Positions 10,473 to 20,747 of a stretch of DNA of 64,000 nt are shown here, in pieces. Within the stretch, counting starts at the first letter, position 1. Each line of letters starts with the position of its first letter. The DNA lies in assembly GCA_964429585.1 (NCBI GenBank), contig CAYSCN010000010.1, forward strand, positions 4,622-68,621, given 5' to 3'. A model generated the notes under the pieces. The model saw nothing but the letters and a program-made list of their open reading frames with translations, was not told where the DNA came from and did no database searches. The DNA is from an uncultured bacterium. GTDB taxonomy: Bacteria > Desulfobacterota > Deferrimicrobia > J040. Both the position numbers and the translations under genes were made by a program.

Positions 10473-10502
10473 AGTTTTCCACGTCGAATCCGCAAAGAGA
10501 CA

Positions 10503-10534
10503 AAAAGAGCGGGGTTTTCCCCGCTCTTTTTTTA
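10503..10534 (+). terminator. rho-independent terminator of the ribosomal superoperon
   Basis: AAAAGAGCGGGG-TTTT-CCCCGCTCTTTT stem-loop followed by a T-run directly after the rplQ stop. Confidence 0.85.
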
Positions 10535-10592: not shown

Positions 10593-10638
10593 TTGACAGA
10601 TTTCTTGACAGCTGTTAGAATTTGAAATCGAATTTCAA
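10593..10638 (+). promoter_or_regulatory. sigma-70-type promoter (TTGACA-N17-TAGAAT) with an adjacent 7-3-7 palindromic operator upstream of fur
   Basis: TTGACA at 10593-10598 and TAGAAT at 10616-10621, 17-nt spacer. Perfect palindrome TTGAAATCGAATTTCAA at 10622-10638, overlapping the probable transcription start and just upstream of the fur RBS. Confidence 0.5.
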
Positions 10639-10671: not shown

Positions 10672-11097
10672 TTGGAAGGGATAATCGAAAGGGTTGAGAA
10701 GGATTTGCGCGAATGCGGGAAAAAGGTTTCGAAAACGCGAAGAAAGGTCATGGAAGTTTTCTTCTCGTGCGGCAGGCATGTGTCGGTAGAGGACCTGTAC
10801 ATGGAAGTGAAGAAAAAGCATCCGGAGATAGGATACGCTACAGTCTACAGAACGCTCAAAGTCCTGGAAGAGCTGGGATACGCAGTTTCACTGGATGTGG
10901 GTGACGGTAGCACGAAATTTGAAACAGCCTTTTCACAGCATCACGACCACCTGGTATGTACCTCCTGCGGCACAATCCTCGAATTTCACGAACCGGAGAT
11001 TGAGCGGCTTCAGGAGAGGGTTGCCAGGAAGTATCACTTCATAGTTGAAAGTCATACCCTCCACTTGTTCGGAACATGTGAAAAGTGTCAGGGTTGA
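10672..11097 (+). CDS. fur: Fur-family metal-uptake transcriptional regulator
   Basis: 141 aa; winged-helix N-terminus plus HHDHLVC..C metal site and C-terminal CxxC; TTG start. Confidence 0.85.
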   Translation: MEGIIERVEKDLRECGKKVSKTRRKVMEVFFSCGRHVSVEDLYMEVKKKHPEIGYATVYRTLKVLEELGYAVSLDVGDGSTKFETAFSQHHDHLVCTSCGTILEFHEPEIERLQERVARKYHFIVESHTLHLFGTCEKCQG

Positions 11098-11110
11098 GTG
11101 GGGAGAGTGA

Positions 11111-13097
11111 GATGCAGTGTCACGGGAGGAATGAGGCCTCCAGCGAGGTTTTGTGTGAAGAGAAGATAATCTTCGTGGGAACGCCCAATGTGGGGAAGAG
11201 TGTAATCTTCGGCTACGTTACTGGAAGGTACGTGACCGTGTCGAATTATCCAGGGACCACCGTGGAGGTGATGAAGGGTCTAGCCAGGATAGGTGGAAAA
11301 AGGGTGCAGGTCATCGATACTCCGGGAGTCAACTCGCTTACCCCGATGTCAGAAGACGAAAAGGTGACGCGTGACATACTCATGCATGAGGACAGTTACA
11401 GGGTATTTCAGGTGTGCGATTCCAAGAACCTGGAGAGGTCACTTCCCATAACGATACAGCTGATGGAGCTCGAGGTTCCGTTGGGCCTTATTCTGAACAT
11501 GTCTGACGAAGCGGAAAAACACGGAATTCAGATAGATGACGGTAAGCTTTCTGAAATATTGTCAATTCCGATAATAAAGACGGTAGCTGTCAGAAAAAAA
11601 GGAGTTGATAGAATAGCGTGGCTCTATGGTCAGGTCAGGGAGGGAACTTTCAAGGTAGATTACGGAGATTACGTTGAGGAGGCCGTATCGAAGGTTGAAA
11701 GGGTTCTTGATAGGGGCGGAGTTGCCAAGGGAAAAAGAGGACTGGCTCTGATGATTCTAAGTGGGGACAGAACTCTCGTAGGTTGGTTGAGAGACAATCT
11801 CACCCCCGAGCAGATCGAGGAGCTGGAAGTGGTGAGGGCGGAGCTGGAGAAGCGCGTTGGAGTTCCTGTTTCATACCACATTCACAATGTCAGACATCGG
11901 GCCGTGATGAAGATAATGGAGCAGGTGAGGAGAAGGAGGGCGGAGAGAAAATTCACGTTTCTCGACAGGCTCGGCTGGTTGTCCATGCATCCCGTGTATG
12001 GTGTCCCCGTGATGATCGCTGTCCTCTACCTGGCATATCTTTTCGTGGGTAAGTTCGGAGCGGGCACTATGGTGGATTTCCTGGAAGGTTATGTTTTCGG
12101 GGGATACGTGATTCCTTTTTTCAAGAATCTGTTCGATGCTTACGTTCCGTTTCCCATAGTGAGAGACTTTTTCGTGGGCGACTATGGGATTATCACCATG
12201 GCGCTCACTTACTCATTCGCTATCATTTTTCCAATCGTTGGAACCTTTTTCATCGGATTCGGGATAATGGAGGACTCTGGCTATCTTCCCAGACTTGCAG
12301 TGATGGTGGACAGGATATTCAAGAAGATCGGTTGCAATGGAAAGGCGATTTTGCCGCTCATTCTCGGGCTCGGTTGCGATACCATGGCGACATTGACGAC
12401 CAGGATTCTCGAAACTCCAAAGGAAAGGATAATAATAACGCTTCTCCTCGCACTGGGAGTCCCCTGCTCGGCTCAGCTTGGAGTGGTGCTGGGGATGTTA
12501 GGCGGCATTGGGTTGCTCGCTACTGTGGTATGGGTGCTTTTCATGGTGCTGATCATCGTGTTTGTTGGTTACCTTGCTTCTCTTATAGTAAAGGGGGATG
12601 AGGCGGATTTCATAATGGAGATTCCCCCGATGAGGGTTCCAGAAGCGAGAAACATAATGGTGAAGACGCTTGCCAGAATAGAGTGGTATTTGAAAGAGGC
12701 TGTTCCTCTGTTCATACTGGGCACGGTGGTTCTTTTCGTGGCTGACAGGTTCGGACTGCTCGAGCTGGTCGATAAGTTTTCGGCCCCTGTCGTGGTGAAT
12801 CTTCTGGATCTTCCTCCGAAGACAGCGGAAGCGTTCATAATCGGTTTTTTGAGGAGGGACTACGGTGCGGCAGGTCTCTACGCGATGCAGAAGGCGGGTC
12901 TTCTTGACAACACGCAGGTGATGGTCAGCCTGATTACCATAACGCTTTTCATACCGTGTATAGCCAACCTTTTCGTGATAATAAAGGAAAGAGGAGCGAA
13001 GATTGCGATGGCGATGGTTCTTTTCATATTTCCCTTTGCTCTTCTGGTCGGAACCGTTTTCAACAAGCTCGTCAGATTCCTTGGGATAGTCTTTTGA
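11111..13097 (+). CDS. feoB: ferrous iron transporter FeoB (G-domain plus membrane permease)
   Basis: GTPNVGKS G1 motif, DTPG G3, then about 8 TM helices. ATG at 11111 follows GGGGAGAGTGAG; the ORF-track start at 11085 is a GTG inside the fur 3' end. Confidence 0.9.
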
Positions 13098-13169
13098 GCA
13101 GCCTATTATGTTCATTCGGCCTGGAGAACCGATGAAAAACCCTGTTAATGGGGAAGGAGGTTTCATTAA

Positions 13170-13358
13170 GTGTTTATCCGTTGTCCTTTCTGTGGTATTG
13201 AAATAAACACTGAAGACAGGAGCTGCCACCGTGAGTGCCCTGTTGGGAAGAACTGCAAGATGATATGTTGCCCCAACTGCAAATATTCGTTCGTCATACC
13301 CAGGTCTTCCATTCTCGAGCTCCTGAAAAAACTGTTCGGCGGGAGCGGCGGAAAATGA
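13170..13358 (+). CDS. small Cys-rich (8 Cys) zinc-ribbon-like protein, FeoB-associated
   Basis: 62 aa, CPFC...C...C...C...CCPNC; its stop overlaps the start of the downstream DtxR-FeoA gene (ATGA). Confidence 0.5.
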   Translation: MFIRCPFCGIEINTEDRSCHRECPVGKNCKMICCPNCKYSFVIPRSSILELLKKLFGGSGGK

Positions 13359-14002
13359 GGGAGCACAGCATAGACGAGATACTCGAATTGATATGGACGA
13401 TGAAAGAGGAAGGCCAGAGCTCTGAGTCCAGCATCGTCTCAAGCTCTGATGAGAAGGATGTGGAAGGGCTGATTGAGCAGATGGTAAAAGAGGGTCTTGT
13501 GGAAAGGAAAGAGAAGGATCTGATTCTCACGAAGAAGGGGCACGAGAGGGCCGAGATGATAATAAGGCGACACAGGCTTGCTGAGTGTCTGCTCTCACAG
13601 CTTTTCGATCTGGAAGACCATCACATAGAAAGCAGCGCGTGTAAATTCGAACACATCCTGAGCGATAGGGTGACTGAGTCCGTATGCACTTTTCTTGGGC
13701 ATCCTCCATACTGTCCGCACGGCAAACCGATACCCAGAGGTGAATGTTGTAAAAAGTTCAAGACCGAAGTTGTGCCTCTTGTTATACGCCTTTCCGATGG
13801 TGACGTGGGATCGGAATACAGGATAGTATTCATAATGCCTCGGCAAAGAAAGAGGCTGGAGCGGTTGAGTGCCATGGGCCTGGTGCCGGGGACATCGATA
13901 AAGCTTCTGCAGAAGCGGCCTTCTTACGTTATTCAATTCTCGGAGACGATGATCGCTGTCGATAAAGGGATAGCGGATGAGATTTACGTCAAGAGGGTCT
14001 GA
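13355..14002 (+). CDS. DtxR/MntR-family metal-dependent regulator fused to a C-terminal FeoA (SH3-like) domain
   Basis: MREHSIDEILELIW... HTH; DtxR metal-binding/dimerisation region; C-terminal VVPLVIRLSDGDVGSEYRIVFI...GLVPGTSIKLLQK FeoA-like segment. Start moved to the ATG at 13355, translationally coupled to the Cys-rich ORF. Confidence 0.75.
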   Translation: MREHSIDEILELIWTMKEEGQSSESSIVSSSDEKDVEGLIEQMVKEGLVERKEKDLILTKKGHERAEMIIRRHRLAECLLSQLFDLEDHHIESSACKFEHILSDRVTESVCTFLGHPPYCPHGKPIPRGECCKKFKTEVVPLVIRLSDGDVGSEYRIVFIMPRQRKRLERLSAMGLVPGTSIKLLQKRPSYVIQFSETMIAVDKGIADEIYVKRV

Positions 14003-15230
14003 CAAAAGATACGCGGCCTGTTCGCTTGCTCTGGTATTTTTTTTCGGTTTTCTTTTTTCCTCTTTCCCATTCGCATTTGCTGGGGAAGGGGGGCGTTCCC
14101 TCGTGCTTTTCAAGTTCTACGACGAAGAAGTCGAAGATCCGGAAATCGTCTATCAGTCACTTGAGAATGTTTTGCGGCGTTTGGGAAATTTGCGTCTGGA
14201 AAAGCCCGGTAAATTCAGGGAAATATCAACTGGGGTGAGGTATCTTCCGGAACCAGCGCCTTCAGACGTGTATTCCTGGAGGGAGAGCCTCGAGAAGGCG
14301 AGGGAGATGTTTAGAGTGCTCGACCTGAGCGGAGCGGCTCGATTACTCGAAAGAATCGTGGAAGTCCCATATAAGTATGAGTTGACGAAAACTTCTCTCG
14401 ATATTGTTCGAGAAGCGACTCTTTTGCTCGCCTTCATAAAGTTCAAACTGGGAGAGGAAGACCAGGCGGGAAGGCTTGTAAATAGGCTTAGAGCTTTTGG
14501 CCTGGACATCGACGAAATTGTCGAGATGTTTCCCCCGGATTTCAGTTCTTTTGCGAGGCTGGTGCTGCTCAAGAAGGGAGGAGTGGATCTGGTGATTTCC
14601 TCTACGCCGTCGGGAGCTACAGTTTTCGTGAACGGAGAAGAAGTCGGCAAAACTCCTCTGATCGATACGAGGGATGAATTCGGGAAACTGAAAGTAGAAG
14701 TGAGAAAGAACGGATACGTGACGAGATCGTTTTGGAAATTCGCGCTTCCAGGGGACAAAGTGGCGTTTGAGGTCAATCTCATACCGGACGAGTCGGTTTT
14801 TTTGAGGAGATCGATATCGCGAGGAGATTTCGAAGAGGCCGCACGAAGCGCCGAAGGATTCATTCGTAGAAACGGATTGGACGCTGCTCTCGTTTCCGTC
14901 CTGATGAAAGAGGGGAAATACCTGAAAATGGACCTGCTTCTGGTGATTTCCGGGGAAAACGAGAAAAATTATTCTCTGTTTAGAAACCTGAGGTTAAGTG
15001 ATAAAGTAGTAAATATCAAGACCATAGAACCACTTTTCGAGGATTCCCTTTTTGTCGGGATATGCCCGAATGCAAAGCTGTTTTTGGAAGAGGGCGATAG
15101 AGAGGTGGAGAAATTGACGTCCAAGTGGTGGTTCTGGACGTTGCTTGCTTTTGGGGCAGCGGGTTTGGTTTACGGTGTATCCAAGGGGGGAAGCCGAAGC
15201 TCAGGGGGGAGCGTGACGGTGGAATTCTAG
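13977..15230 (+). CDS. PEGA-domain protein with signal peptide and C-terminal TM anchor
   Basis: 417 aa; hydrophobic N-terminus; two PEGA-like segments (ISSTPSGATVFVNGEEVGKTPL; VEVRKNGYVTRSF); C-terminal WWFWTLLAFGAAGLVYGV TM. Start uncertain (26-nt overlap with the upstream gene). Confidence 0.55.
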   Translation: MRFTSRGSDKRYAACSLALVFFFGFLFSSFPFAFAGEGGRSLVLFKFYDEEVEDPEIVYQSLENVLRRLGNLRLEKPGKFREISTGVRYLPEPAPSDVYSWRESLEKAREMFRVLDLSGAARLLERIVEVPYKYELTKTSLDIVREATLLLAFIKFKLGEEDQAGRLVNRLRAFGLDIDEIVEMFPPDFSSFARLVLLKKGGVDLVISSTPSGATVFVNGEEVGKTPLIDTRDEFGKLKVEVRKNGYVTRSFWKFALPGDKVAFEVNLIPDESVFLRRSISRGDFEEAARSAEGFIRRNGLDAALVSVLMKEGKYLKMDLLLVISGENEKNYSLFRNLRLSDKVVNIKTIEPLFEDSLFVGICPNAKLFLEEGDREVEKLTSKWWFWTLLAFGAAGLVYGVSKGGSRSSGGSVTVEF

Positions 15231-15234
15231 AGAG

Positions 15235-16593
15235 GTGCCCCAAGTAGGCCAAATGAGAGAGAGCTTCAAATTACTCATCACCCTGATAGTTTTGTTTTCG
15301 GCGGTTTCTCTTTCCCTTGCCGGCGGAGAAAAGGTAATAAAGGGGATAGACAAAACCAGGATAATCAAGTCCCAGGACAAGCCTCACGACGTACTGAAAA
15401 AAGCCTGCTACGCCTGCCACCCGGGGGAAAAATATGATTTCTGGATGTTGATTTACGAGGGGAAGGAGCCCCGTATAACGGTGGAGAGGAAGCTCACTCC
15501 CTTCGGAACTGGAGTGGGAGCGGCCACGGAGGGAAAGGGAACATTCAACTCGCACGAGAGTCTCACCTGCAATTTTTGCCACTATGAAAATCCCGCAAAA
15601 GGCAAGCCCAGGTTCATCGTCGACCCGGAAGGGCTCTGCAGGATTTGCCACCCTGCCACGGTGGACCACCATTATCCAGCGGAAAAGGTCAAGGATAAAG
15701 TGGTGGATCTGATAAGGGAGAACAAGCTTCCTGGACTTGCCGGTGAATTCAACTGTTACACCTGCCATAAGATACACGACTCTGTTTTTTCCATGAGAGA
15801 TGATTACAGGAAGGCTCTCGAAGAACTGGAGGTTCCGAATCCTCACGGGAGCAAGGTTTTCTGCGCTACGTGTCACGCGGGAAAAATCAGGAAGGGGGGC
15901 GAAGTAAGGTTCGTCACGGGCCTCGACATAGACGGGCTTTGCCTCCGCTGCCACGGGAAAGAGGGAATACCTTCTTCTCCTCATGTATGGGGTGTCACTT
16001 CGACGGAGAAAACGTGGAAGATGGATTACGTGGGGTATCCCTTGAGGAGGGGAAAGTTGACCTGTCAGACGTGCCACGATGAGGTCTGCTATGATCCCAT
16101 AGATCCGGAAAATCCGAAGTTCCTGAGAGGAGGACCATACGCGAGCGAGGACGAATTCTGTTACAAATGCCACGTCAATACGGATGTCGCTTTTTCGAGC
16201 CCCCACAGGCAAATCGACCAGTTTGGGAGGATAATTGAGGAAAGCTGCCTGTTCTGTCACGTGGGTGTTCCAACGGGCGCAGAGGGAGACCCGAATGTCC
16301 GGCTCGCAGGAGACGAGGTGGGAATATGCGGGACTTGCCACGATATAGTCCCACATCCCGGGGTGAATCACCTGATAAAGCTTCCTCCGAGAATGCTCAG
16401 GAGAAAACGGGAATATGAGAGAAGGCATCTGGTAAAGATTCCCCTTGATGATGAGGGAAACATAAGGTGCAGCACGTGCCACAATCCTCATGCCAAGGGA
16501 GTTATAAAGGGGGAGGCAGGCGTGGGGGCTGGTTCCAAGTGGCGCGTTGCTGACTTCAAAGAAGTGTGCGCTCCGTGCCATGGGCGTTATTGA
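15235..16593 (+). CDS. dodecahaem c-type cytochrome (12 CxxCH), secreted
   Basis: 452 aa; signal peptide; 12 CxxCH motifs counted by eye (CYACH, CNFCH, CRICH, CYTCH, CATCH, CLRCH, CQTCH, CYKCH, CLFCH, CGTCH, CSTCH, CAPCH). Confidence 0.85.
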   Translation: MPQVGQMRESFKLLITLIVLFSAVSLSLAGGEKVIKGIDKTRIIKSQDKPHDVLKKACYACHPGEKYDFWMLIYEGKEPRITVERKLTPFGTGVGAATEGKGTFNSHESLTCNFCHYENPAKGKPRFIVDPEGLCRICHPATVDHHYPAEKVKDKVVDLIRENKLPGLAGEFNCYTCHKIHDSVFSMRDDYRKALEELEVPNPHGSKVFCATCHAGKIRKGGEVRFVTGLDIDGLCLRCHGKEGIPSSPHVWGVTSTEKTWKMDYVGYPLRRGKLTCQTCHDEVCYDPIDPENPKFLRGGPYASEDEFCYKCHVNTDVAFSSPHRQIDQFGRIIEESCLFCHVGVPTGAEGDPNVRLAGDEVGICGTCHDIVPHPGVNHLIKLPPRMLRRKREYERRHLVKIPLDDEGNIRCSTCHNPHAKGVIKGEAGVGAGSKWRVADFKEVCAPCHGRY

Positions 16594-16617
16594 AGAATGC
16601 AAATAAAGGAGTGAGCG

Positions 16618-17283
16618 ATGTGGAGCTTAATCGTCAAAGGCGGATGGGTGATGTATCCCCTTCTCGCACTATCCGTTATTGCACTCGCTATCATAATCGA
16701 AAGGTTGGTAGCCCTGCACAGGATAAGGGTCAACACGTCCGATTTCGTCGAGGAAATCAACGAGCTTCTCGGCAAGAACCAGATGGAGGAAGCGATTGCC
16801 AGGTGCGAGAGAGAAAACAGTCCAGCGGGAAGGGTGATAATGGCGGGGCTTAAGAATTTCAGGAAGAGCAGGGAGGAGGTGGAGGGAGCCATAGAGACCG
16901 CTGGAGATATCGAAATTTCGAAGATGGAGAAAGGGCTTCTTTATCTTTTGACGATCGCGAAGATATCCCCGCTTCTCGGGTTTTTCGGGACCGTTGTAGG
17001 CATGATAAAGGCGTTCGAGGCAATAGGGAGATTTGGGGTTGAGAATCCGCGGATGGTGGCGCTGGGAATTTCGGAGGCTCTGATTACGACGGCAGCCGGT
17101 CTCATCATCGCGATTCCTGTGTTTTTCGCCCACTTCTACTTTACGAATAGAATCAACAGGTTCGTTCTCTCGATGCAGGAGTCGAGCCTGGCCTTTCTCG
17201 AGGCTCTGAGTGAGCTGGAGGAGAAAATAGCAATGCGGGCCGCTCAGGTTGATGAGATAGGAGGTGAATACATTGAAGTTTAG
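16618..17283 (+). CDS. exbB: MotA/TolQ/ExbB-family proton-channel protein
   Basis: 221 aa, 3 TM helices, ExbB/TolQ-like loop and C-terminal TM pair. Confidence 0.8.
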   Translation: MWSLIVKGGWVMYPLLALSVIALAIIIERLVALHRIRVNTSDFVEEINELLGKNQMEEAIARCERENSPAGRVIMAGLKNFRKSREEVEGAIETAGDIEISKMEKGLLYLLTIAKISPLLGFFGTVVGMIKAFEAIGRFGVENPRMVALGISEALITTAAGLIIAIPVFFAHFYFTNRINRFVLSMQESSLAFLEALSELEEKIAMRAAQVDEIGGEYIEV

Positions 17284-17689
17284 ACGGTCGACTCAGAAGG
17301 ACGATGAGGTTATTCCGACTGCATCCATGGCAGATATAGTTTTTCTCCTGATAATTTTCTTCATGGTCACCTCCGTTTTCAACCTCGACCGGGGCCTTGA
17401 GATGAGGCTTCCACAGATGGAGAAAGCGGGTCAAATTTCCAGGAAGGGTATTGTCGTATCGATTGACAAGAAAGGAGACGTGTTCGTCGATGGAAACAAG
17501 GTGGAAATTTACGAGGTAGGAAGAGTCGTGTATGAAAAGCGGGGAAAGAGTCCCGGCGCACCTGTGATATTCAAGAGCGACAGGGACACGAGATATCAAA
17601 TGGTGATGGATGTCCTGGATGAGTTGATGAAGGCAGGAATATACGACGTATCGCTACCTGTGGTGGAAGAGAAGAAAAAAGAGGAATAG
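17264..17689 (+). CDS. exbD: ExbD/TolR-family biopolymer transport protein
   Basis: 141 aa; single N-terminal TM (MADIVFLLIIFFMVTSVF) plus periplasmic domain, typical ExbD. Confidence 0.8.
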   Translation: MNTLKFRRSTQKDDEVIPTASMADIVFLLIIFFMVTSVFNLDRGLEMRLPQMEKAGQISRKGIVVSIDKKGDVFVDGNKVEIYEVGRVVYEKRGKSPGAPVIFKSDRDTRYQMVMDVLDELMKAGIYDVSLPVVEEKKKEE

Positions 17690-17698
17690 GAAGGGAGA

Positions 17699-18517
17699 AT
17701 GACCAGCAGGGAGCTCATAAAGATGTGGGGAGTCGTTCTGGCCTCTGTGCTGGTTCACATTCTTCTCTTTTCTGCTTTTTCGTTCAGGTACGAGCCCAAC
17801 ATAAAATTCATTAGGAAGAAAACGAAAATAACGCTTCACCCCTTCAGGCCACTGGTGCCCAGAAAGGTTTCCTTGAAAAAAGAGGAGCCCGTGATTCCCC
17901 GCTCAGGATCGATGGTAGAGGAATCGAAAGGCGGAATCAAGGCTAAGGAACAGGAACTTGGAATATCCAGGCCCTCCTCAAGTGAAGAAGATTTGATGCC
18001 GGCCCCGGAGGCTGCCGGGGGAGAGGTGGAAGATACTTCTGTTTTGTCAGATTTTCTCGCAATGATCAGAAGTGACGAATTCCAAAAGAGGCTCGAAGAA
18101 ATAAGAAGAGAAAAGGAGAGTGCCTGGACGGGTAAAGGGGTCGGAAAAAGCGACCTGTCTGTCCCTGAGGGCGCGAAGGGAGGGAAAGGAAAGTTCGAGG
18201 AGCCTTACCTGGATCCTAGAGTTAGACTCGTAGTGGTTTCGTATCCGAAAACGTCCATAGAGAAGGAACACCCGTATATAACCTACCCTGATTTGAAGGT
18301 AAAGAAATACGAACTTCCTTCGGGGTGGTGCAATGTGGTGATTCGAATCTATACCGATCAGAGGGGGAACGTGGTGAGCAGGGAAATATTGAGACCTCGG
18401 GAAGGAGGTATGAGGGAGAGGCTGTTTCTCGAGCACACACTCGAATCTCTGAAGAGCTGGAAATTTCCAAGGGCCAAGTCGGAAATCATCATCGATGTGA
18501 GGTATTACGTGGAATGA
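17699..18517 (+). CDS. tonB: TonB-family energy transducer (N-terminal TM, Pro/Glu-rich linker, C-terminal TonB domain)
   Basis: 272 aa; TM WGVVLASVLVHILLFSAF; charged linker; C-terminal domain resembling the TonB C-terminal domain. Confidence 0.65.
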   Translation: MTSRELIKMWGVVLASVLVHILLFSAFSFRYEPNIKFIRKKTKITLHPFRPLVPRKVSLKKEEPVIPRSGSMVEESKGGIKAKEQELGISRPSSSEEDLMPAPEAAGGEVEDTSVLSDFLAMIRSDEFQKRLEEIRREKESAWTGKGVGKSDLSVPEGAKGGKGKFEEPYLDPRVRLVVVSYPKTSIEKEHPYITYPDLKVKKYELPSGWCNVVIRIYTDQRGNVVSREILRPREGGMRERLFLEHTLESLKSWKFPRAKSEIIIDVRYYVE

Positions 18518-19275
18518 CGAGACGGGTTCTTTTGATTCTCGCGTTGTGTCTGGCGGCCATGACAACATATGCCTATGCCATGGATCCAGAGGGGTGTATC
18601 GAGTGTCACGAAATGCAGTTGATAGTCAAGGCGGGACAGGCTTACAGGAACCTGCGGGTTGCCGAAAAGGAATACAGGCTTTCTTCACATGGAAGTCTTT
18701 ACTGTTCGGATTGCCATGCAAGCGAAACGATCGTTCCTCATGAACCCGGAAACAGGGAAGCAGTGTGTTTCGAGAAGTGCCATTCGAAGGGGAGCATCGA
18801 AGAGGTGAGGAAAGTCCACACGGAGAAATACTACAGCTATCAAGACGATATTCATTACAAGGAAGGAATCGGGTGTGCCGATTGTCACAGCGAATTCGGT
18901 AAGGTGAAAACTTATGCCATGTCTCTTAAATGCCTCACCTGTCACGGGAAAAACGGTGAGGGAAAGGGGGTGCTCCTCGTTTCGACCCCGGTTCACGGAG
19001 ACCTCACGGGTGTGGGGGGAGTAGTGACGTGTGGAGATTGTCATTCTCCTCATATTCCAAAGGAGAAAAGAACGGAAGAGACGCTGAATTGCTATCGCGG
19101 CTCAGAGTGTCACGGAAACCGTGTCGTGAGGAAGATTGCCGTAGGCGGTCACCTGTCTTCGGGAGGAGGGCGGATTCTGGGCGTGATCCGGGAGGCAGTA
19201 AGGATTGTGGTCGTGCTGTTCCTGCTCGTGGGGGTAGGGCTCATCCTGTCAGGGAGTAGGAAAAATGGAAGGTGA
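18514..19275 (+). CDS. membrane-anchored multihaem c-type cytochrome (5 CxxCH plus a CX3CH and a CX5CH variant)
   Basis: Start moved to the ATG at 18514 (MTRRVLLILALCLAAM signal), overlapping the tonB stop (ATGA). Motifs CIECH, CSDCH, CFEKCH, CADCH, CLTCH, CGDCH, CYRGSECH; C-terminal TM IVVVLFLLVGVGLIL. Confidence 0.8.
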   Translation: MTRRVLLILALCLAAMTTYAYAMDPEGCIECHEMQLIVKAGQAYRNLRVAEKEYRLSSHGSLYCSDCHASETIVPHEPGNREAVCFEKCHSKGSIEEVRKVHTEKYYSYQDDIHYKEGIGCADCHSEFGKVKTYAMSLKCLTCHGKNGEGKGVLLVSTPVHGDLTGVGGVVTCGDCHSPHIPKEKRTEETLNCYRGSECHGNRVVRKIAVGGHLSSGGGRILGVIREAVRIVVVLFLLVGVGLILSGSRKNGR

Positions 19276-20218
19276 TAGGGTAGTCGTTAAAAAAGAAGTA
19301 AAGAAGTATGCGACTGTGGATGTGATCATCCACCACGCTGCGTTAGCACTTGGTGCTATTCTCATCATCACGGGGGTGGGAGTGAAATTCTGGAGCGGAG
19401 GTTTCTGGGAGGTTTCTCACTTCTGGGCGGGCGTTCTCTTCTCTATTGTCGTTGTCTCTCATCTGTGCGTGTTGATAGCAAGAGGAGTAACGAAGGATAT
19501 TCCGATCGGGAGATTCCCTTTTCTTTTTTCGGTCCGGGAGTTCTTGAATTACTTGAAAGGTATTGGCGGAATGGATGCTAAGTTCTCGGTCCCCGAGAGG
19601 GTGGATTATTTTTCGTTGATGTTTTTTTCAGTCGTTGTCTCTGCTTCTGGGATTTTCCTCCGCTTTCCCAATCTTCTTCCAGGTAGAGGTGGGATAGACG
19701 TTGTCTTCACCATGCTGTCTGTGCATTTCACGTCTGCTGTGGGCTTTACGTTCTGGGTTGTTGCGGTCCACGTGTTGAACACGGTTGTGAGCCCTTTTCC
19801 TGGAAACGACCCGATGTATATCTTCGGCAGAGAAGTCGATATTGAGGCCGTCAGGGAACACAGACCGGGATGGTTCGAGGAGCTGGAAAGGGAGGGGGCC
19901 GTGGAGGTTTTGAAGGAAGAGGACCCGGAAGAAAAGATAGACAGGGAAAAGGTCGAGTCGCTGCTCAATGAAGGCAACCGGAATTTCAGGGAAGGCAATT
20001 TTGAGGATGCGGAAAGACTTTACAGGGAAGCAATAGCTTTGTATCCAGCCTACTCGCAGGCGCACTACAATCTTGCCGTTTTACTCAAGAAAATGGGGCG
20101 ATATGCTGAAGCAATAGGACAGTGCAGGAGATTTCTCGAGGTGGATCCGTTTCATCCTCTTTCGATCAGGGTAAAGGAGATGATACGCGAAATGGAGGAA
20201 GGGCCAGGTGCTCGGTAA
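19265..20218 (+). CDS. integral-membrane b-type cytochrome-like domain fused to C-terminal TPR repeats
   Basis: 317 aa; 4-5 TM helices with conserved His (IIHHAALALG, VVSHLCV, HFTSAVGFTFWVVAVHVLN) resembling FdnI / Ni-Fe hydrogenase cytochrome b; C-terminal TPR-like repeats (AERLYREAIALYPAYSQAHYNLAVLLKKMGRYAEAIGQ). Confidence 0.6.
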   Translation: MEGDRVVVKKEVKKYATVDVIIHHAALALGAILIITGVGVKFWSGGFWEVSHFWAGVLFSIVVVSHLCVLIARGVTKDIPIGRFPFLFSVREFLNYLKGIGGMDAKFSVPERVDYFSLMFFSVVVSASGIFLRFPNLLPGRGGIDVVFTMLSVHFTSAVGFTFWVVAVHVLNTVVSPFPGNDPMYIFGREVDIEAVREHRPGWFEELEREGAVEVLKEEDPEEKIDREKVESLLNEGNRNFREGNFEDAERLYREAIALYPAYSQAHYNLAVLLKKMGRYAEAIGQCRRFLEVDPFHPLSIRVKEMIREMEEGPGAR

Positions 20219-20747
20219 AGGATACAGGTTGTTTTCTATTGTGGTTGCTCTCACGTCTTTTTTCCTTGTTGTGGTTTCCGGTAGGAGTGAGAAAGGCGGT
20301 GTCTCGATACCTCCTGTGAAAATCTCCAGGCTCGTTTACTTCCACGGGAAAGGGGAAGAACCGGAAGTAGTGAGGAAGGACTGTTCGTCCCAGGCAGGTT
20401 GCCATCTCGTCTTCCCGCATGAGGACAGACGCGGCTTTGCTGCTTTCCGGAATCAACACGAAACTTTCATGGACTGTTTCGTCTGTCACAGGATCTCGGG
20501 GTTTGAGAAATTCGCTGTGGAAAAAACTTACGGCAGGAGGGTGGTGATATTGGAGACGTTGCCGCAACGTGGCGATTTTCACGCTCAATTCATGAAGCCG
20601 GTTGGTTGTGACGGCTGTCACACTGACGAGGGGAAACGGCGGTTCGAAAAAGTCACCGGGGAAAAATTTGGTAGCGAGATGGTGAATCCTCTTCCGCTCA
20701 TTCTCCTCAAGGAAGGATCGAAGAAATGGTTCGTTCCAGGTTTCTGA
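20208..20747 (+). CDS. small periplasmic c-type cytochrome (2 canonical CxxCH plus a possible variant site)
   Basis: 179 aa; N-terminal TM/signal; CFVCH, CDGCH and CSSQAGCH. Confidence 0.7.
   Translation: MLGKGYRLFSIVVALTSFFLVVVSGRSEKGGVSIPPVKISRLVYFHGKGEEPEVVRKDCSSQAGCHLVFPHEDRRGFAAFRNQHETFMDCFVCHRISGFEKFAVEKTYGRRVVILETLPQRGDFHAQFMKPVGCDGCHTDEGKRRFEKVTGEKFGSEMVNPLPLILLKEGSKKWFVPGF

Follow-up and report, generated by a model that had tools for sequence, protein, structure and literature searches.

The window analysed here is a stretch of 64,000 nucleotides from an uncultured bacterium of the Deferrimicrobia (GTDB lineage Desulfobacterota; J040), taken from contig CAYSCN010000010.1 of assembly GCA_964429585.1, and the gene under study lies on its forward strand at 19265-20218. 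In the list of open reading frames (ORFs) of the window, this gene starts with ATG and encodes 317 residues, and a Shine–Dalgarno-like stretch (GGAG/AGGA) stands 5-14 nucleotides 5' of the start codon. It overlaps both its 5' neighbour (18514-19275) and its 3' neighbour (20208-20747) by 11 nucleotides, which suggests translational coupling on both sides. The identical gene, with the same gene call, was found on two other public contigs from the same organism, one in a Joint Genome Institute (JGI) metagenome and one in a Sequence Read Archive assembly. A first-pass annotation had proposed that the product is a dihaem cytochrome b of the FdnI/HyaC type fused to tetratricopeptide repeats (TPR), and this was borne out by matches to PF01292 and TIGR01583, a profile match to FdnI, structure comparison with Foldseek and the alignment of putative haem ligands. 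The gene and its parts are as follows:

19265..20218, + strand: whole gene, predicted 317-residue FdnI-like dihaem cytochrome b with C-terminal TPR domain (ORF, Pfam and NCBIfam matches, AlphaFold2 model)
19307..19789, + strand: predicted cytochrome b domain with four transmembrane (TM) helices, residues 15-175 (hydropathy, AlphaFold2, alignments, Foldseek, hhalign)
19790..19939, + strand: hydrophilic linker without TM segment, residues 176-225 (HMMER alignment to 1kqf_C, MAFFT alignment, hydropathy)
19940..20200, + strand: TPR domain, residues 226-312, with two motifs (231-262 and 265-296) and a capping helix (300-311) (Pfam, PDB matches, Foldseek)

Hydropathy and an AlphaFold2 model, computed from a 71-sequence family alignment (mean pLDDT 90.2, pTM 0.71), place the TM helices at residues 17-42, 46-76, 109-133 and 144-175. 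Four or five such segments had been anticipated; four were found by both methods, and there is no fifth. Searches with hidden Markov models of the Ni/Fe-hydrogenase b-type cytochrome and of FdnI, as the first-pass annotation had suggested, gave a match in both cases, each scoring under the cut-off of its model: PF01292 (Ni_hydr_CYTB, prokaryotic cytochrome b561) aligns with residues 15-178 over model positions 2-167 of 179 (E = 8.4e-6), and TIGR01583 (FdnI gamma) matches end to end (E = 8e-6). The closest relative, P0024, which is 40% identical to the target, reaches 43.8 bits with PF01292 and thus exceeds the Pfam threshold, and 29 of the 71 family members match this model at E ≤ 0.01 (best 9e-11).

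A phmmer search of the PDB with residues 1-210 as a single sequence gave no match. The sole match of a 16-sequence family profile was E. coli FdnI (1kqf_C; E = 0.003), with positions 12-207 aligned to FdnI residues 9-207, and FdnI was also the top PDB match of the model in Foldseek (E = 3.3e-5, target-normalised TM-score 0.63, 224 columns). When the family was compared by hhalign with six FdnI-like b domains, all over the PF01292 threshold and four of them fused to haem-c domains, a probability of 99.3% and an E value of 3.5e-20 were obtained over 196 columns, with all five conserved His of the family aligned. Judging from sequence and model, the identity of the N-terminal domain as an FdnI/PF01292-type dihaem cytochrome b appears to be real.

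The His residues of the helices are found in TM1 (23 and 24), TM2 (52 and 66) and TM4 (154 and 169), so that the expected location of conserved His within TM helices was confirmed for three of them. In an alignment of 72 sequences, all have H66, H154 and H169, 71 have H52 and 69 have H23, the missing ones being gaps and never substitutions; within the His-His doublet of TM1, conservation is limited to H23. A joint MAFFT alignment with FdnI pairs H23, H52 and H154 with FdnI H18, H57 and H155, while H169 falls one residue off FdnI H169, because the two His of TM4 are 15 positions apart in the family and 14 in FdnI. In FdnI, the haem ligands are reported to be H57 and H155 for the haem on the periplasmic side and H18 and H169 for that on the cytoplasmic side (Jormakka et al. 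2002). The loop before TM3 carries an invariant pattern, K106-x4-E111-x2-D114-Y115, and its residues K106, F107, E111, D114 and Y115 align with FdnI K108, Y109, Q113, M116 and F117. The segment K108-F117 of FdnI presumably contributes to the menaquinone/HQNO (2-heptyl-4-hydroxyquinoline N-oxide) site on its cytoplasmic side. From these alignments we infer, on good grounds, that the target binds haem and quinone. Beyond TM4, the linker motif R200-x2-W203 aligns with the C-terminal tail of FdnI (H197-P-R-W200).

Residue 164 (window positions 19754-19756) is His in 93% of the family and Trp in the target. In the alignment, the non-ligand H164 of FdnI sits opposite family position 163, one residue from position 164.

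Taken together, the target shares with FdnI the four TM helices, the His of TM1, TM2 and TM4 (two in the latter) that align with H23, H52, H154 and H169, the K-Y…Q/E loop that precedes TM3 and the R/H-x2-W tail that follows TM4. It differs in overall sequence, with an identity of only about 16%, in the fifth His H66, in one extra residue between the His of TM4 and in the added 87-residue C-terminal TPR domain. The partners differ too, since FdnI works with FdnGH, whereas those of the target are membrane-anchored multihaem c-type cytochromes. The target is not an FdnI equivalog, because of its TIGR01583 score and because no FdnGH-type genes are present.

The TPR domain was recognized by TPR_2 (E = 4e-13, 48.7 bits, cut-off 27) and TPR_1 (E = 5e-11, 42.4 bits, cut-off 27.8), and its sequence matches in the PDB are consensus TPR proteins and the TPR of O-GlcNAc transferase. 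The AlphaFold2 model shows helices at 221-242, 246-259, 264-276 and 280-293 with a cap at 300-311, and superposes on the designed CTPR proteins CTPR2/3 with a root-mean-square deviation of 1.2-1.7 Å over 83-88 columns (Foldseek). The repeats had been thought to occupy the C-terminal 120 residues; they are present but cover about 87 (226-312), and residues 176-225 form the linker homologous to the FdnI tail. In its two near-consensus repeats of 34 residues, the domain resembles canonical TPRs (consensus CTPR, O-GlcNAc transferase, Hop/SGT type). Canonical peptide-clamp TPRs typically have three repeats, whereas the target has two and a cap, and it is further set apart by being tethered to what is predicted to be the cytoplasmic face of a respiratory membrane protein.

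Conservation within the protein is highest in the TPR domain. There the target is 41% identical to the family, as compared with 26% in the TM domain, and among the other family members the values are 63% and 54%, respectively; Y263, S264, Q265 and a D-P-F-N-P motif are invariant across the family. TPR_2 was present in all 71 family members scanned. Because the domain occurs in every member and is the most conserved region, it is taken as functional, being under selection and no decaying appendage. In addition, the fusion is genuine and neither an assembly nor a chance artefact, since the TPR accompanies the b domain in 71 of 71 members and the five His are 96-100% conserved among the 72 sequences.

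The side of the membrane on which the TPR lies was deduced from several indicators. Hydropathy gave no hydrophobic segment C-terminal of TM4 (residue 175), which ruled out a fifth helix by which the TPR would come to lie in the periplasm. Since four TM helices are followed by nothing hydrophobic beyond residue 175, the N-terminus and the TPR share one side. The family mean of Lys plus Arg is 2.7 at the N-terminus and 7.2 in loop 2, versus 0.8 in loop 1 and 1.4 in loop 3, which by the positive-inside rule marks the former as cytoplasmic. The termini of FdnI are reported to be cytoplasmic (Jormakka et al. 2002). In relatives with fused haem-c domains, the haem-c domain is followed by one TM helix with a basic loop and then by the b domain, and the haem-c domain is necessarily periplasmic. 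On account of three independent indicators, namely the Lys and Arg distribution, the homology to FdnI including its C-terminal tail and the order of domains in the fused relatives, the TPR almost certainly faces the cytoplasm; of the two locations that had been left open for it, the periplasmic one was thus not supported. LptD is encoded in the window, among the downstream genes, and for this reason the organism is taken as a diderm with a periplasm. The c-type cytochromes are periplasmic, and a cytoplasmic TPR would therefore be out of reach of the neighbouring ones. The idea that the repeats scaffold these cytochromes, advanced in the first-pass annotation, was not borne out by the Lys and Arg counts, the FdnI homology or the fused relatives.

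Relatives were not easily retrieved. When the whole protein was used, word-indexed searches gave nothing but TPR proteins and the query, and with residues 1-210 they gave the query alone. An exhaustive HMMER scan of 1.84 billion representative sequences with residues 1-210 gave 10 matches, three of which (P0024, P0025 and P0029) have the same cytochrome b and TPR architecture. Among the other seven, all of them FdnI-like b domains, four carry a fused haem-c domain with 3-11 CxxCH motifs, N-terminally in P0031-P0033 and C-terminally in P0030, and three lack CxxCH. Profile searching extended the family to at least 71 clusters of 267-334 residues, mostly 304-334, in which the target and P0024 form a divergent branch. 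Family members are named 'hypothetical', 'tetratricopeptide repeat protein', 'thiosulfate reductase cytochrome b subunit' or 'cytochrome b subunit of formate dehydrogenase' in their sources, and they are labelled as uncultured metagenome-assembled genomes (MAGs) of Deltaproteobacteria, Desulfobacteria or, in one case by name, Candidatus Deferrimicrobiaceae, which belongs to the phylum Deferrimicrobiota, formerly MBNT15.

The fusion had been called unusual. This holds insofar as literature searches on FdnI-type cytochrome b, TPR and multihaem fusions yielded no description of it, but within one lineage at least 71 clusters make up a conserved family with this architecture. Searches on Deferrimicrobium and Deferrimicrobiota cytochromes and on MBNT15 multihaem extracellular electron transfer returned nothing on the fusion or on a cluster of ExbBD/TonB and multihaem genes, and the terms TPR, ExbB, TonB and NHL are absent from the MBNT15 genome paper. 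The Tenderiales uet cluster, which has NHL and TPR/NrfG proteins (bioRxiv 10.1101/2022.05.06.490989), is a different system. The cytochrome b-TPR protein is thus a conserved, previously undescribed variant from an uncultured iron-cycling lineage: its core function is familiar, while the fusion is real, conserved and undescribed in the literature found.

Both genes adjoining the target encode c-type cytochromes. They had been described as soluble, which proved incorrect, as TM segments anchor both of them in the membrane:

18514..19275, + strand: 253-residue c-type cytochrome with signal peptide, five CxxCH, one CxxxCH and, at the C-terminus, a TM anchor that carries a short basic tail
20208..20747, + strand: 179-residue c-type cytochrome with N-terminal TM anchor, two CxxCH and one Cx5CH

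Conservation of these neighbours was followed by comparing gene order at 15 related loci from different MAGs, with 26-35% identity at the target. A cytochrome c gene adjoins the target on its 5' side at all 15, and five CxxCH and one CxxxCH were counted in its product at 14 of them (the ORF call of L017 being unreliable); an extra Cx5CH in the 253-residue protein occurs in this window only. The 179-residue cytochrome is found at 14 of 15 loci as well, 13 by tblastn and L016 by blastp. The 253-residue protein is a probable periplasmic partner subunit, in an arrangement like that of CbcA. As to the unusual haem motifs, CxxxCH is present in every orthologue of the 253-residue cytochrome. For the 179-residue one, 14 orthologues were detected; 13 of them have Cx4CH (L016 does not), and the protein of this window has Cx5CH. 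No dedicated haem lyase is encoded near the flanking cytochromes.

The three genes are part of a larger cluster, 10672-26088 on the + strand, which spans about 15.4 kb and encodes four c-type cytochromes with about 12 + 6 + 3 + 30 (about 51) haem motifs. Its remaining genes are:

10672-11097, + strand: fur
11085-13097, + strand: feoB
13170-13358, + strand: small Cys-rich ORF
13355-14002, + strand: DtxR-type regulator with FeoA domain
13977-15230, + strand: PEGA-domain membrane protein
15235-16593, + strand: 12-haem cytochrome c
16618-17283, + strand: ExbB
17264-17689, + strand: ExbD
17699-18517, + strand: TonB-like protein with N-terminal anchor
20726-21610, + strand: NHL beta-propeller with signal peptide
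21634-21840, + strand: DUF4177 small protein
21843-24776, + strand: 30-haem cytochrome c
24769-26088, + strand: flavin adenine dinucleotide (FAD)-dependent oxidoreductase-like protein

From 13977 to 26088 all genes are co-directional and overlap or lie at most 24 nucleotides apart, and no convincing terminator was seen inside the cluster. The order at the 15 related loci is fur, feoB, dtxR/feoA-like, PEGA, 12-haem c, exbB, exbD, TonB-like, 6-haem c, cytochrome b-TPR, 3-haem c, NHL, DUF4177, about 30-haem c and sometimes the FAD protein. This last protein, at the cluster end, has no signal peptide, is about 50% identical in relatives and has no sequence match in the PDB; its gene is missing at 5 of the 8 related loci that reach far enough (L004, L006, L007, L009 and L013). 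Genes for molybdopterin, iron-sulphur (FeS) or hydrogenase subunits are encoded neither in this cluster nor at the 15 related loci. Within 10672-26088 there is also no HdrD-like or FeS subunit of the Hmc/Tmc/Dsr kind, no ccm, ccs or nrfEF gene, and no outer-membrane porin or TonB-dependent receptor.

The TonB-like protein was assigned as such because of its position after exbB-exbD and a weak NCBIfam match; it matched no Pfam family and no PDB sequence, and its conservation is confined to the C-terminal 100 or so residues (about 50% identity in relatives). The DUF4177 protein (68 residues, no signal peptide, no relative found in the PDB by sequence search) is by far the best-conserved product of the cluster, with 62-77% identity to its orthologues, a value that is about 30% in the target and the cytochromes on either side of it.

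The cluster opens with the iron-homeostasis genes fur, feoB and a dtxR-like gene, and no BccR-like regulator was seen. A strong promoter-like site lies 5' of fur at 10593-10621 (sigma-70-like TTGACA-17-TAGAAT, 11 of 12 positions, extended TG), and it is adjoined by a perfect palindrome, TTGAAATCGAATTTCAA, at 10622-10638, which may be a Fur-type operator for the cluster. The Fur/FeoB/DtxR head suggests iron-responsive expression.

CbcL, CbcBA and ImcH are inner-membrane quinol:cytochrome c modules at which electrons are committed and which set the energy conserved in extracellular iron respiration or uptake. To our knowledge, none of them has a solved structure or an understood mechanism of regulation. 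The target locus resembles the first two, as they have been described, in architecture. CbcBA consists of CbcB, a dihaem b subunit with four TM helices, and CbcA, a 7-haem cytochrome c anchored by a C-terminal TM helix, while CbcL is a 9-haem c domain fused to an FdnI/HydC-like b domain with five candidate His; between CbcB and CbcL themselves there is no homology in sequence (bioRxiv 10.1101/2021.04.15.440034). As in CbcBA, a dihaem b gene here adjoins that of a periplasmic multihaem c with C-terminal TM anchor, the c gene preceding the b gene, and the five-His pattern of the target is as described for CbcL. CbcL, MtoC and MtrH represent the published architecture of an N-terminal multihaem-c/b fusion (PMC6295460), and the relatives P0031-P0033 have the same architecture. 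Neither CbcB nor CbcL has been described with a TPR. The module differs from CbcBA in its third, small anchored cytochrome c and in its context, which is Fur/FeoB/DtxR and ExbBD-TonB-like genes instead of a sigma-54/BccR regulator.

Considering these comparisons, the target is reasonably probable, though well short of assured, as the quinone-interacting dihaem b subunit of a three-gene bc-type inner-membrane module whose TPR serves docking or assembly in the cytoplasm. The three subunits would be the target b, the 6-haem c with its C-terminal TM helix and the 3-haem c with its N-terminal one, a split version of the CbcL-type multihaem-c/b fusion laid out like CbcA-CbcB of Geobacter. Two b haems with FdnI-like ligation (H52/H154 near the periplasm and H23/H169 near the cytoplasm) would carry electrons across the membrane. 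At one end, a menaquinone/menaquinol site on the cytoplasmic side would be formed near the K106/E111/D114/Y115 loop and the family-specific H66; at the other, the periplasmic haem-c subunits would feed, or be fed by, the 12- and 30-haem cytochromes. Electrons could run either way, in quinol oxidation for Fe(III) reduction or in quinone reduction during electron uptake, and the cluster would act in extracellular electron transfer and/or iron acquisition; perhaps it serves reductive iron acquisition instead of, or besides, respiration. The cytoplasmic TPR would make protein-protein contacts for docking or take part in assembly. The analysis itself shows homology, His conservation, the fold, signs of topology and a conserved gene order; what we infer in this scheme is the binding of haem, the quinone site, which way the electrons run, regulation of the cluster by iron and the TPR partner.

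Several candidates for the partner of the TPR were considered. The acidic C-terminus of the DUF4177 protein (…REVVED) was ruled out as an EEVD-like TPR ligand, as its orthologues end in …REIAG/S, and the FAD protein was weakened as an obligate partner by the absence of its gene at 5 of 8 informative loci. Remaining candidates are the C-terminal tail by which the anchor of the 6-haem subunit reaches into the cytoplasm (…LSPPxGRGGDRS in many relatives), an oligomer contact with a second complex, or a soluble protein of the cytoplasm. In a more far-reaching version, to which we give little credence, the TPR would be no passive tag for assembly but a coupling device that recruits a cytoplasmic protein to the cytoplasmic-side haem/quinone site, and the 15-kb cluster would encode a machine of a kind not recognised before, with electron flow gated or fed from inside, that serves extracellular electron transfer or the reductive uptake of iron. 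A redox enzyme, the DUF4177 protein, the cytoplasmic domain of ExbB and an iron-sensing regulator are candidate recruits in that case.

Some observations weigh against a quinone-interacting b subunit of a Cbc-like module. The PF01292 score of the target, 26.1 bits, is below the gathering score of 30.1 bits, and its TIGR01583 score, 25.9 bits, is far under the equivalog cut-off of 115.85. In the sites themselves, the His of TM4 are spaced by 15 residues and not by the 14 of FdnI, and nothing in FdnI corresponds to the fifth conserved His, H66, which lies in the half of TM2 towards the cytoplasm. If the quinone site is on the cytoplasmic side, outward electron flow would consume membrane potential and inward flow would generate it. 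Likeness to Cbc is one of architecture, by description of GSU0593 (CbcB) and GSU0274 (CbcL), homology having been shown only to the metagenomic multihaem-c/b fusions. Finally, no TPR partner emerged from the two candidates examined, the DUF4177 C-terminus and the FAD protein.

Another reading makes the b domain a wire through the membrane that, as in the Hmc/Tmc/Dsr complexes, serves a redox partner in the cytoplasm. The TPR would dock a soluble oxidoreductase such as the FAD protein (24769-26088) beside the cytoplasmic-side haem, and electrons would link metabolism in the cytoplasm to the periplasmic haem-c chain while bypassing menaquinone. This would agree with a cytoplasmic and strongly conserved TPR, with an FAD protein without signal peptide at the cluster end that is about 50% identical in relatives, and with the position of the extra H66 in the cytoplasmic half of TM2. 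Nevertheless, it seems unlikely, because the FAD gene is missing at 5 of 8 informative loci where the TPR is always there, the loop aligned with FdnI K108-F117, which we take to be a quinone-site segment, is invariant in the family, and the cluster has no HdrD-like or FeS subunit. The menaquinone-linked module remains preferred. Its b subunit is named after enzymes in several JGI records of relatives (thiosulfate reductase, formate dehydrogenase cytochrome b subunit), and FdnI is the closest solved structure, so that a membrane anchor of formate dehydrogenase, [NiFe] hydrogenase or thiosulfate reductase had to be considered. That role was rejected on gene context and has hardly any likelihood left: molybdopterin, FeS and hydrogenase genes are missing here and at the 15 related loci, the neighbours that never vary are c-type cytochromes, and the TIGR01583 score is 25.9 against 115.85. 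In addition, the CbcBA preprint (bioRxiv 10.1101/2021.04.15.440034) reports that b subunits of this type typically receive 'thiosulfate reductase'-like names in error.

The location of the TPR was also weighed the other way round. A periplasmic TPR could bind the neighbouring c-type cytochromes, either as a scaffold at the point of quinone entry or as a CcmI/NrfG-like apocytochrome chaperone for the CxxxCH and Cx4-5CH sites. TPR domains of CcmI and NrfG do serve cytochrome c maturation, and each of the two flanking cytochromes has a conserved haem motif of non-canonical form. However, the four TM helices and the basic residues put the N-terminus and TPR side in the cytoplasm, the homology to FdnI, with its cytoplasmic termini, extends through the tail before the TPR, in the fused relatives the b domain is preceded by a periplasmic haem-c domain and a single TM helix, and no ccm or ccs genes lie within 10672-26088. 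A periplasmic TPR is thus very improbable.

For the three-gene module with a cytoplasmic TPR, a strongly conserved binding domain on the b subunit, present throughout the lineage, suggests that this electron-transfer step can be coupled to assembly, regulation or a redox partner inside the cell, and the 87-residue TPR is a concrete handle in the search for that partner. The results also correct the automatic annotations 'TPR protein' and 'thiosulfate reductase cytochrome b'. The cluster, in Deferrimicrobiota/MBNT15-like bacteria, unites Fur/FeoB, a TonB-type motor and about 51 haem sites, and is absent from the published genome analysis of the phylum.

The small Cys-rich ORF of the cluster (13170-13358) encodes 62 residues that resemble a zinc ribbon (CPFC…CHRECPVGKNCKMICCPNC); it has a good Shine–Dalgarno sequence, overlaps the start of the regulator by 4 nucleotides and is not listed in the public gene calls of L002. 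The genes 3' of the cluster are housekeeping ones (GGDEF, ArgRS, trp operon). On the other side of the cluster, the window opens within the final part of a ribosomal-protein operon, whose terminator is a bidirectional hairpin at 10502-10531. Nearly all long ORFs in window positions 1-50000 are on the + strand, and the GC skew is persistently positive (about +0.2) over about 50 kb.

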